A stretch of DNA of 64,000 nt from contig CAXXFK010000030.1 in assembly GCA_963663965.2 (NCBI GenBank), positions 128,001-192,000 on the forward strand, in the 5' to 3' direction. This stretch comes from Sedimentisphaerales bacterium. Its GTDB lineage: Bacteria > Planctomycetota > Phycisphaerae > Sedimentisphaerales > SM23-30. Shown piece by piece: positions 11,530 to 32,193 of this stretch; within the stretch, counting starts at the first letter, position 1, and each line of letters begins with the position of its first letter. The translations under genes and the position numbers were made by a program. The notes under the pieces are model-generated. The model did no database searches and was not told the origin of the DNA. It was given only the letters and a program-made list of their open reading frames with translations.

Positions 11530-11775
11530 CAACAGCCGGGTTGGTGCGAAGGCGCGAAACCGCAACCAAAGAAAAGATATTTCACACGAAGGCACGAAGA
11601 AAAACAGCCGAACCACGAATCCCGATGAATCGGGACGAATTAACACCAATAAAATTAATAACGGCCATTTAAGCTATGGAGGTATTCTGCTTGCGGTGCA
11701 CACGAAGGGGCATGAAGATTTAATAAAATATAACAGCCTTTCAAACCACGGAATACACGGAATACACGGAAAAAA
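11530..11775 (+). repeat. Triplet repeat unit cluster
   Basis: cacacgaaggcacgaag, aaccacgaat-cccgatgaatcggg-acgaat, cacgaaggggcatgaag and tataacagcc...accacggaatacacggaatacacggaa. Confidence 0.8.
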
Positions 11776-11885
11776 GAAAATAAGAAGATGATATTGGCAG
11801 GGAAGTTTTACGCCTTAATTGTATGGGGAGAGATGCTGGTGTGAGAGGGTGGTTGTGCCTGTTTTTATGAAAGGGGGAACCGGTT

Positions 11886-12262
11886 ATGAGTGAGATGAAT
11901 TTGAGGAGGAGAGTTTTAAGATTCGGGGCGCTGTTTTTGAAGTGTATCGGGAGATGGGGTGTGGATTTCTGGAGGCGGTCTATCAGGAATGTCTGGGGAT
12001 GGAATTTGACAGCCGGGGAATTCCGGCGCTGGCGAAACGGGAGCTGGTCTTGCATTTTAAAGGGAATCGACTGGAACAACGATATCAGCCGGATTTTGTG
12101 TGTTATGACCGGATTATAGTCGAGTTGAAGGCGGTGAACGAACTGGCGGATGAACACCGGGCACAAGTTCATAATTATCTGAAAGCGGCGAAACTGGAAT
12201 TGGGATTGCTGGTTAACTTTGGACATTATCCCAAGGCTCAGGTGGAAAGGATTGTCCGGTGA
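11886..12262 (+). pseudogene. GxxExxY (PD-(D/E)XK-like) protein with an apparent frameshift just after the start
   Basis: GCGFLEAVYQE...PDFVCYDRIIVELKA...AQVHNYLK...GLLVNFG. The conserved FEEESFKIRGAVFEVY is out of frame with ATG 11886 and is preceded by an in-frame TGA at 11891. Confidence 0.75.
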
Positions 12263-12390
12263 AAGGGTAAACGGCCGGGTTGGCTGCGGAATGCCTGGGG
12301 CGGTCTGGCTGCCACAAAGGGGGAATATCTTACATGAAGGCGCGAGGGAAAACTGCTTTTGACAGGAGATGAGAAAAGGGAAAAGGCATA

Positions 12391-12525
12391 AAATATAACA
12401 GCCGGGTTGACCACGGAATACACGGAATACACGGAAAAAGAAATAAAGGAAGTGGTATTGGCGGGGAGGTTTTGCGCTTTAATTGTATTGGAGGGGGTGA
12501 TAGTGGTTCGAGAGAGTTGGGTGTA
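12391..12525 (+). repeat. Imperfect ~135-bp direct repeat of 11726-11860
   Basis: Shared aaatataacagcc, accacggaatacacggaatacacggaaaaa, tattggc.ggga.gtttt.cgc.ttaattgtat. Confidence 0.8.
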
Positions 12526-25824: not shown

Positions 25825-25970
25825 GTTGTAAGTGGTTTTATCTTCGGTGGATATGGGTGATTTTGGTTTGATTGGGTTCGTTTGGATTGGGGTGGGGGGC
25901 GGAGAGGTTGTTCGGAGAATTGGGCGGCCCAGATATCAGGTAGAGGTTGTTGAGGAAGGTGGGAACTGGT

Positions 25971-26346
25971 GAACCACGAATGGATATGAATACACGCTAA
26001 CAAAGAGTTGGAGACTAACAATATGGGTTTAAAATATAACGGCCGATTGAACCACGAAGCGCCTTCCTGGGGCGGATCTTCGGCCCTCCTGAGGCGGATC
26101 TTCGACCTACGGCGCTACATGAAGGTTAACAAAAAATATAACGGCCGGTTTAACCGCAGGTGGACGCAGATAAAATATTGATAAGCTATTGAAATATAAG
26201 AAGATATAACCACGGAAAAACACGGAAAGACACGGAAGAAATCAGGGTTAAGAAGTTAAAATCAAAGAAGATGGAACTATAGAAAGGGGCGAAAATAAAG
26301 AGTGGCTGCGCCACGAGTTAAATTTTTAAAGGCAGGGTTTTACCAT
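25971..26346 (+). repeat. Array of triplet repeat units with nested hairpins; continues at 27993-28100 after the IS110
   Basis: aaccacgaatggatatgaat, tataacggcc..aaccacgaag, aaccgcaggtggacgcagat and aaccacggaaaaacacggaaagacacggaa. Confidence 0.8.
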
Positions 26347-26470
26347 GAAGATATCATGAAAGCCAGAATGTCCCGTTGCGGTGGTTCGTGCTATAATGCA
26401 CATTTGTTGTATATGAACACGAGCTGCCCGGGGGGCGCTCATGACACCTTTTTACAGGAGCATTCTGGCT

Positions 26471-27526
26471 ATGAAGACTATTATGGCAATTGATTTAGGA
26501 AAATTCAAGAGTGTAGCGTGTCGTTATCAAATTGGCAGCGGCGCCCAGGAATATTGGACGATTCCCACCCGTCCGCAGGCGATTCACGATCTGGTGGTGA
26601 CTCATTCGGCCGATTGTGTGGTTTTCGAGGCCTGTGGTATCATTGGTTGGATCTGCGATTTATTGGATGATTTGGAGATTGATTATCGAGTGGCCAATAC
26701 CAATAGTGAGGAGTGGCGGGGTAAACGCCTGAAAAAGAAGACGGATCGCAAGGATGCGCTGTGGCTGGCCCGTCGGACGGCACTGGGCGATCTGCCGACC
26801 GTCTATGTGCCGGGTAAGGCGGTGCGCGAGAAACGGGCCTTGATTAATGAACGGAAAAGTATCGTCGAACGAATAACACAATGCAAAAACACCATCCGGG
26901 CGCTGCTGGATCGTCAGGCCCTGCCGATGCCTTCCGGCAAAAACGGCTGGTCGCAAAAACAGATCGCCCATTTGCGGAGTCTGGCCTGTCCCATGGCCGA
27001 GGTGCCGGTGGAGGCGCTCTGGCGTGGCAGCTTGTGGGTGGAATTGGAGTTATTGCACACTCTGGGCGAATTGTTGTTGGTGATCGACAACAAACTGCAT
27101 GCCCTGAACCAAACGGACCGGCACGTGCAATTGCTCACGACCATTCCGGGCGTGGGCGAACGGACGGCCGAAGCGGTGGCCGCTTTAATCGATAATCCCC
27201 ACCGGTTTCAGAACTGCAAGCAGGTGGGCTGCTATATCGGTATGACCCCGCGCCAGTATCAATCGGGAACGATCGACCGGCAGGGCCGCATCAGTAAGGA
27301 TGGCAATCGTTTGCTGCGAAGTCTGCTGGTGGAGATCTGCTGGCTGGGCCAGCGAACCAATCCGTGGATACGAGAAACGTATCAGCGGATCCGGCGCGAC
27401 AGCAAGACACGCTCCAAGATAGCGATTATCGCGGTGGCGCGGCGGTTGTTTGTGCGGATGTGGGCGATGTTGCGCGATGGGACGCCCTGGCAGATGCCGC
27501 CGCTGAAGGCTGCCGTATCCGGATAA
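26471..27526 (+). CDS. IS110 DEDD recombinase/transposase
   Basis: AIDLGK, VFEACG, KTDRKDA, TIPGVG, GMTP..YQSG (catalytic Ser) and AVARRL. Confidence 0.95.
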   Translation: MKTIMAIDLGKFKSVACRYQIGSGAQEYWTIPTRPQAIHDLVVTHSADCVVFEACGIIGWICDLLDDLEIDYRVANTNSEEWRGKRLKKKTDRKDALWLARRTALGDLPTVYVPGKAVREKRALINERKSIVERITQCKNTIRALLDRQALPMPSGKNGWSQKQIAHLRSLACPMAEVPVEALWRGSLWVELELLHTLGELLLVIDNKLHALNQTDRHVQLLTTIPGVGERTAEAVAALIDNPHRFQNCKQVGCYIGMTPRQYQSGTIDRQGRISKDGNRLLRSLLVEICWLGQRTNPWIRETYQRIRRDSKTRSKIAIIAVARRLFVRMWAMLRDGTPWQMPPLKAAVSG

Positions 27527-27968
27527 AAAATACGTTTTGATCGCGTACCGTTCTTTGACTGATTTTAACGAATGCTTAGATTTTGCTTGATTGACATCGA
27601 TATGGAACCTTGTTTCACTTGATGGGTCTAGAGCCTGACGTGAAGATTAAGCCGTATCGTAAACGATGGAATGGGACCATGGTAAAAAAAGAAGACCTGG
27701 ACACCCCGGATAGAAGGCTGAAACAATCGAGCATTTTATCGAATAAAAATAAGGATTCGCTGCGCGAAAATTTGTTTGATCAGGTTTATCGCTTATCGTC
27801 CAAAAAGGCAGGAGGGGCGGCGTAGGTACGCCGCCTGCCTTCCCGGACCCCTTGACGGCGCTCAGGTCGCTCCTCAGCGTTGCCTTATCCTCCGCAAGGG
27901 CAAGGACAGGATAACATGTTTTGAAATAAGGAAATACAATAAAATGCCATATAAACCACTTTTCCCTC
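27527..27968 (+). ncRNA. Candidate bridge/seek RNA region (exact bounds unknown)
   Basis: About 440-nt non-coding right end of an IS1111-like element, with short matches to the target and element-end sequences. Confidence 0.5.
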
Positions 27969-28216
27969 TTGACCTCTGGCTTCATAGAAGATTGTGAAGG
28001 GCATGAAGTTAAGAGGAAGAATTAACAGCCGGTTTAACCGCAGATGGACGCAGATGAAACAGCCGGGGTTTACCATCTGGGGCGGTCAAGCCGCAAGCTT
28101 AAATGAGTTTGTGGGGTTAAGATTAACGAATTGCTCGAATGTAGCAACACGAATCAATATCAAGATGGTCAAAAGGCTGGTATAATTCCTGGCAGACGTC
28201 GGCGACCTATTTCAAT

Positions 28217-31459: not shown

Positions 31460-31511
31460 AAAGGGGTCAGGAACCATTTAGGTTGACTTGGCGCTGATAC
31501 GGTGCCAGAAT
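31460..31511 (+). promoter_or_regulatory. Left REP motif plus sigma-70 promoter of RAYT
   Basis: AAAGGGGTCAGGAACC followed by TTGACT-17 nt-CAGAAT. The copy at 29957 reads TTGACA-17-CAGAAT. Confidence 0.65.
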
Positions 31512-31518
31512 GGGATAT

Positions 31519-32193
31519 ATGCCACGAGCGAAACGCAAAAGTTATGGTGGTTATCTTTACCATGTGCTCAACCGGGCGAATGGCCGGCTGCGTATTTTTC
31601 GCAAGGCCGCTGATTTTGCGGCGTTTGAGGCCATACTCGGCCAGGGCCAGGAGCGGACGGGGATGCGGATCTGTGGGTATTGCCTGATGGGCAATCACTG
31701 GCATCTTCTGTTGTGGCCGCGGCATGACGGGGAGCTGTCGGAGTATATGCGATGGGTGACGGTCACGCACACGCAGCGGTATCATGCCGCCCACCGCAGC
31801 GCCGGTACGGGCCATATTTATCAGGGGCGATTCAAGAGCTTTCCGATTCAGGGGCAGATTTATTATGTGACGGCGATGCGATATGTCGAAGGCAATCCGT
31901 TGCGGGCCGGACTGGTGACGGATGCGGCGGATTGGCCCTGGAGCAGCTATGGCCAGCATGTGGGCGGCGCGGGCAGGGAGACCCCGATTACCCTGAGTGA
32001 ATATAGCACGCCGCTGCCGGAAAACTGGGACAGAGTGGTTCATGCTAATCTCAGTGAGAAGGATTGTGAGCGTTTTCAAAACGCGATCCGGCGGGGCTGT
32101 CCGTTGGGAGATGCGGGCTGGACAGAAAAGATTGCCGCCCAATTCGAGTTAGAGTCGACTCTGCGGCCCAGAGGAAGGCCGAGATCGACTTAA
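31519..32193 (+). CDS. REP-associated tyrosine transposase (RAYT/TnpA-REP, Y1 HUH)
   Basis: YHVLNR, CLMGNHWHLLL (HUH), GHIYQGRFKS, RYVEGNPLRAG (catalytic Tyr), WPWSS and RPRGRP tail. Confidence 0.93.
   Translation: MPRAKRKSYGGYLYHVLNRANGRLRIFRKAADFAAFEAILGQGQERTGMRICGYCLMGNHWHLLLWPRHDGELSEYMRWVTVTHTQRYHAAHRSAGTGHIYQGRFKSFPIQGQIYYVTAMRYVEGNPLRAGLVTDAADWPWSSYGQHVGGAGRETPITLSEYSTPLPENWDRVVHANLSEKDCERFQNAIRRGCPLGDAGWTEKIAAQFELESTLRPRGRPRST

Follow-up and report, generated by a model that had tools for sequence, protein, structure and literature searches.

An IS1111-group insertion sequence at heptamer triplets of a Sedimentisphaerales genome: predicted guides change with their targets among relatives

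An IS1111-group element in the genome of a Sedimentisphaerales bacterium sits twice at the same point of a heptamer triplet and likely finds this site by an RNA from its 3' non-coding region, a reading to which we give a probability of roughly 0.88. The reading builds on the anatomy of the element, its two insertions, an empty allele and the covariation of guides and targets in related elements. The window analysed here is a stretch of 64,000 nucleotides (GenBank assembly GCA_963663965.2, contig CAXXFK010000030.1, positions 128,001 to 192,000), and coordinates given without a contig name refer to it.

Results

Anatomy of the element

Judged from its sequence, the window element is a complete IS1111-group IS110 insertion sequence with ordinary recombination machinery (Table 1). 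The transposase matched NF033542 with 206.6 bits (cut-off 140), and the residues D8, E53, D92, D95 and S265 are unchanged across 20 homologues; domain matches and invariant residues thus bear out its membership of the IS110 family. An AGGAG ribosome site of the gene is located at 26456. Non-coding DNA extends over 122 bp 5' and 462 bp 3' of the gene, the latter being a long downstream region like that of IS1111 elements. A search of the window against Rfam revealed no match at gathering thresholds.

Inverted repeats of 12 and 11 bp with a 7-bp extension on the left and a 3-bp extension on the right are as in the IS1111 group, and the 7/3 rule regenerates the natural empty allele described below. 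A first-pass annotation of the window had described the sub-terminal repeats as one base apart, which is correct, the difference being a one-base indel without substitution. It had also noted GAAGAT at both ends. The hexamer is present at 26347 and 27987, but the core is shorter than this shared end sequence. The junctions of four relatives (L032, L033, L034 and L036) have only AG, or GAAG, in common; we therefore assign AG as the core and 26349 and 27988 as the ends. AT as the core was ruled out, since it is absent from the junction overlap in these four relatives.

Table 1. Features of the element, its target and a GxxExxY gene in the window
Feature	Position	Strand	Basis
IS1111-group element, 1,640 bp	26349..27988	+	ends by 7-bp/3-bp extension convention (PMC11187229, in part); first two bases AG = core
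DEDD transposase, 351 aa	26471..27526	+	PF01548 and PF02371; D8, E53, D92, D95, S265
Left sub-terminal inverted repeat, 12 bp	26356..26367	+	read from sequence
Right sub-terminal inverted repeat, 11 bp	27975..27985	+	read from sequence
Left target half: first five bases of heptamer unit 1 (CATGA), AC before	26344..26348	+	C11 empty allele
Right target half: AG core, 2-bp spacer, unit 2 (27993-27999), spacer, unit 3 (28002-28008)	27989..28008	+	
Predicted target-binding stem-loop of seek/bridge RNA	27596..27659	+	RNAalifold on 7 elements, outer stem conserved
Guide 1, TTTCACT	27613..27619	+	predicted pairing with top strand of heptamer unit 2
Guide 2, CGTGAAG	27639..27645	+	sense of heptamer unit 1 including AG core; predicted pairing with bottom strand
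Predicted donor guide ATAGAAG, for element right end and core	27710..27716	+	cognate sequence match
Predicted junction-promoter -35 hexamer TTGACC	27969..27974	+	sequence
Predicted junction-promoter -10 hexamer TATCAT	26352..26357	+	sequence
Internal extended -10 match TGnTATAAT, candidate circle-independent promoter	26389..26397	+	sequence
GxxExxY gene between two CACGGAA triplets	11744..12436 (match 11906-12253)	+	PF13366; same repeat class

Insertion sites and empty allele

The genome contains two matches to the transposase protein, one in the window and one on contig C23; two further, more distant IS110 genes match PF02371. The first-pass annotation had suggested aligning all genomic copies. 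Both copies (2/2) have the same ends, and each interrupts the first unit of a heptamer triplet with 9-bp period at the AG core, its triplet being of the form C-R-TGAAG-AT-N-GTGAAG. Between their ends the two copies are identical, and a 1,661-bp alignment showed two differences, both in the target. The expectation that every insertion would lie in CAYGAAGAT failed with the C23 copy, which splits CGTGAAG instead. Targeting of a CAYGAAG family holds at the level of the family, but this consensus is too narrow for the C23 unit, CGTGAAG, and for the second unit, which reads N-GTGAAG at both sites.

Removal of the element had been said to leave an empty site, and such a site does exist: an allele of the window site without the element lies at C11:22144-21934, with one base different across the three heptamers, in a segment that is 98% identical to the right flank of the window copy over 4.2 kb. 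A single target position, a single orientation and no added bases were found for the two copies (2/2, with the C11 empty allele) and for 9/9 copies of a relative in genome G023.

The DNA just upstream of the insertion (25970-26260) contains four or more further heptamer repeats whose words differ, resembling a BIME mosaic; one of them is broken by a GCGGATCTTCG doublet. To the right, the segment 27994-32216 includes a truncated RHS C-terminus (Tox-REase-7), a candidate immunity gene and a RAYT-like gene, and a second copy of it lies at C11:22040-17833 (98%). This segment is partly repeated on C22 and C28 and is punctuated by triplet clusters.

The heptamer triplets and GxxExxY genes

Scanned strictly for three heptamers of 9-bp period led by ACC, the genome yielded 54 sites, and one locally shuffled genome yielded 0. 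We kept 42/54 sites by word; 8 of the 12 left out were proline/methionine/histidine-like CCCAT or CCATG runs. The 42 triplets form 32 clusters, and the motif AACRGCC[GT] lies near 23/42 of them compared with 1% of random sites.

A link between triplets and GxxExxY genes was tested on the PF13366 genes of this genome. Four of its five PF13366 genes have a triplet upstream and three have triplets on both sides (400-bp flanks, by reading). One of the five lies in the window, downstream of the unit at 11701 that the first-pass annotation had compared with the target; this unit exists, but its spacing is 10 bp and it falls outside the sites matching the guide pattern given below. Four PF13366 genes fetched from genomes G017 and G062 adjoin heptamer arrays by eye, the words of these arrays being other than those targeted by the G062 element. 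No PF13366 match was detected in G023 (97% complete) or G061, nor in the DNA flanking the 190 fetched IS loci (up to 1.2-1.5 kb), and on these grounds we rejected a strict physical link of insertions to GxxExxY genes. PF13366 is entered as of unknown function in PMC3424549 (seen in part, as were all sources cited here).

The RAYT-like gene at 31510-32193 matched NF047646 with 63 bits, below the cut-off of 80, and has four near-equal matches on C11, C22, C28 and C30. It carries its own short inverted flanking repeats; as these differ from the triplets, we did not attribute the triplets to this gene.

Predicted guides in the 3' non-coding region

An alignment of the seven closest elements revealed a conserved stem with two variable segments, which we predict to be guides 1 and 2. 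Their order, a match to the top strand followed by a match to the bottom strand, is that given for IS1111 seekRNAs (PMC11187229). The predicted donor guide has an exact cognate match in 30/39 distinct elements (see below), compared with 22/1112 non-cognate pairs; a second donor guide, for the left end, was not evident by eye. Folded as a whole, the 466-nt non-coding region did not surpass shuffles (z -0.98).

In this sub-clade, bases 8-11 of the guide-1 loop have no pairing to the spacer and core, whereas guide 1 does pair with both in the more distant relatives L045, L075 and L041. As guide 1 appears to skip the variable 2-bp spacer and the core, one RNA could read copies with different spacers.

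The target derived from the guides, C-R-TGAAG-N3-GTGAAG, has 13 empty matches in the genome against 0.29 expected, and 11/13 are ACC-led triplets. Counting the two occupied sites, the element is present in 2/13 ACC-led triplets with the guide pattern. Triplets with CATGAAG as the second unit fall outside this pattern.

Covariation of guides and targets in relatives

A query of the genome collection with the single protein gave no relative; a query with an alignment revealed relatives, those with a name being mainly Planctomycetota. Among the 190 loci fetched, 63 have both ends recognisable and represent 39 distinct elements. Anchoring on constant positions, with the target left unused, placed 33/39 elements and dropped six for low score; about 6/33 anchors seem misplaced by eye and were kept in. 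This procedure replaced a first anchoring rule with unique anchors in 16/39 elements only. An unanchored bipartite score, also set aside, separated own from foreign targets weakly (21/39 at 14 or more vs 9% of foreign pairs).

Over the 33 elements, guide 2 and its own left flank agreed at 4.03 of 5 bases compared with 2.18 (sd 0.18) after permutation, with at least 4 of 5 bases in 25/33. Guide 1 showed runs of 6.0 compared with 4.18 (sd 0.18). The observed value of either guide was equalled by 0/10,000 permutations, a significance that is overstated because kin are non-independent in the permutation.

Close relatives exchange guide and target jointly, with the words CACGAAG, CACAGAG, CACGAAA and CGTGAAG. 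The G023 element, with guide CACGAAA, follows ACCACGA in 9/9 copies. The elements of G061 and G062 escaped the end pattern and were examined separately: 9/9 fetched copies in G061 lie in CGCCAAG triplets with a 9-base guide-1 match, and 4/4 in G062 lie in CGCCAAG triplets, with an altered guide 1 and use of a later junction with a matching spacer. Reverse insertion of the G017 and G038 relatives was considered and dropped once both guides had been located. Programming of the element against the triplet family, as proposed, is thus sustained by identical ends, the same split position and matching guides that change with the target in relatives.

One G023 copy (L013, G023:C1:3247826-3251893) lies inside a 29-nt CRISPR spacer whose own sequence is a CACGAAA triplet, which indicates that flanking context is not needed. 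The array has 36-bp repeats and is presumably type V-A-like; since the spacer is a triplet, it may derive from repeat-bearing DNA.

A heptamer of the form C-R-Y-N-R-R-R, a pattern chosen after inspection of the data, is split by 18/39 distinct elements, and a downstream repeat of the unit at 6 of 7 bases or better was found for 12/18 of these compared with 2/21 others. On a tree of the relatives, the heptamer label changes three times, compared with 13 times when shuffled; heptamer targeting may have had one origin with losses, or may have been gained repeatedly.

Further elements were seen alongside. G023 carries a second IS1111 (L027-L030; 37% identical) with 4/4 copies after ACCAC in CACGAAT-type heptamer repeats. 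A 47%-identical relative in G017 (L004, L011, L014, L016, L018, L022, L024 and L026) has a different target repeat containing GGTGTCCGG, and its copy L011 adjoins a RAYT-like gene. A high-depth contig of 1,581 bases in run X1 (record 5) shares sequence with the beginning of the transposase gene and with the guide region; its loose ends read like those of a G023-type relative, and a related element occurs in high abundance in that sample.

Predicted pairing between the two guides

With a direct repeat as target, the two guides are complementary to each other and are predicted to pair. Energies predicted for the local RNA are -17.8 kcal/mol for the fold with paired guides and -12.9 kcal/mol when the guides are kept open, and 5.7 guide-guide pairs are expected in the predicted ensemble. 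In a hand-read set, 16/17 heptamer-type elements and 3/16 others have a guide-guide duplex of -3.2 kcal/mol or better, an excess that follows from target geometry and is thus no independent evidence. Guide pairing in the free RNA is a predicted obstacle that the targeting model must overcome.

Predicted junction and internal promoters

Joining of the element ends in a circle would, as the first-pass annotation had pointed out, create TTGACC-17 nt-TATCAT, a predicted promoter of the circle only, which agrees with the sigma-70 consensus at 10/12 positions. By sequence alone, such a junction promoter is predicted at 9/12 or better in 36/39 distinct elements, so it is an ordinary feature of the clade. 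The internal extended -10 match inside the left end is found in 5/39 elements. No circle joint was found in the contigs of four runs; contigs show presence, not absence. For IS621, excision is sustained by low-level transcription without the junction promoter (PMC13626964).

Discussion

Proposed mechanism and alternatives

By analogy with ISEc11 and IS621, we infer expression of the RNA, a circle, promoter activity, pairing and chemistry as follows. Read-through or the internal extended -10 would give a low-level transcript, and from it transposase and RNA. The element would circularise, and the junction would create the promoter. Guide 2 would pair with the bottom strand of heptamer 1 and the AG core, and guide 1 with the top strand of heptamer 2, seemingly skipping spacer and core; a third segment would pair with the element's own right end. 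Strand exchange at AG would then lead to insertion in one orientation with no bases added. Related elements may have been retuned to other words of the heptamer repeat class.

An RNA-guided element could also use a short site set mostly by heptamer 1 and the core, with the repeats being the commonest such sites and guide 1 having a minor role. L032 and L036 lie after CACGA and have CACGAAG-type guides 1 to which their right flanks match poorly (runs of 4), guide 1 leaves the core uncovered in this sub-clade, and 6/18 heptamer-type elements lack a 6-of-7 unit repeat downstream. We nevertheless consider this unlikely: C-R-TGAAG by itself has 1,500 occurrences in the genome, but the two insertions lie in sites that match guide 1 as well, a class with 13 empty members, and guide 1 covaries with the right flank.

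Selection of the site by DNA structure, such as a hairpin, or by a host or GxxExxY protein that binds the repeats, with incidental matches in the non-coding region, is very improbable. Hairpins could form in G061 and G062, where 10/13 insertion sites have an inverted arm just upstream, but there the guides read one arm. The target repeat in the present genome is not palindromic (0/32 triplet clusters with arms on both strands, strict scan), the CRISPR-spacer insertion has neither hairpin nor GxxExxY context, no GxxExxY gene was found in G023 or G061, and the guides covary with the targets.

That both placements reflect a single event or an artefact of assembly, through duplication of a segment or mis-joining of repeats, is hardly credible: the flank of the window copy does lie in DNA duplicated on C11, and the assembly has 42 contigs and 5.4% contamination, but the C23 and C30 flanks differ outside the target, a unitig of run X1 spans 26346-27992 and terminates at the element ends, and a C23-type left junction was found in a different sample, X4.

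Relation to known systems

Among the systems nearest to the window element are ISEc11, ISKpn4 and ISPa11 (IS1111, seekRNA; PMC11187229). It resembles them in its DEDD transposase, sub-terminal inverted repeats with 7/3-bp extensions, long 3' non-coding region, predicted junction promoter, top-strand guide first, lack of duplicated bases and natural reprogramming among relatives. They target a linear site, attC sites and REPs, whereas the target of the window element is a tandem direct repeat; in contrast to theirs, its two guides complement each other, and its guide 1 appears to pass over spacer and core. With the IS621 bridge RNA (IS110 group; PMC11208160, PMC13626964) it has in common a two-base core, target and donor guides, a junction promoter and insertion in dispersed repeats, in the case of IS621 of the REP family; IS621 differs in having the RNA encoded in the left end, short inverted repeats and palindromic REP targets. 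ISPpu9 of Pseudomonas putida (PMC12288879, PMC8450116) is likewise an IS110-family element resident in dispersed intergenic repeats, but targets REPs, a comparison made by description. REP/BIME repeats with their RAYT genes (PMC2817692) are similar as clustered intergenic repeats by a small enzyme gene and as landing sites of IS110-family elements. The triplets, however, are purine-rich direct heptamer repeats beside GxxExxY (PF13366) genes and mostly single arms in this genome.

IS110-family targeting of REPs, attC sites and Tn21 inverted repeats is established (PMC11208160, PMC11187229), and IS110 targets have been reconstructed at scale (preprint 10.64898/2026.10.21.760802). The main text of that preprint, as far as available, has no mention of GxxExxY, and its supplements may contain this clade. 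In the accessible part of another preprint (10.1101/2025.10.25.684509), 'tandem repeat' is applied to cargo by-products only, and matches to the heptamer words in the supplements of PMC11208160 are incidental in the places displayed. Titles and the beginnings of abstracts in the literature gave no description of heptamer triplets or of an IS aimed at them, and a link of triplets to GxxExxY nucleases was not found in print. The heptamer-triplet class as an IS1111 target is thus new relative to the literature found; the RNA-guided mechanism is known, and the element is very likely RNA-programmed. The first-pass annotation's phrase 'an unusual target class' is fair for a class with no description found in print, but repeat targeting as such is established for IS1111.

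Implications

We can only speculate, with considerable doubt, that a broad IS1111 lineage is a standing parasite of GxxExxY-associated heptamer repeats that retunes its guides to the word of each genome, and that the self-paired loop, opened by transposase or target, is a built-in brake with no description for seek/bridge RNAs. For programmable recombinases, a guide loop with complementary guides, one of them skipping a variable spacer, poses a design question. The relatives provide a natural series of guide-target swaps. Tandem direct repeats join the target classes of IS1111 elements, and the landing of an IS at a fixed point of the triplets marks these as an old and abundant repeat family.
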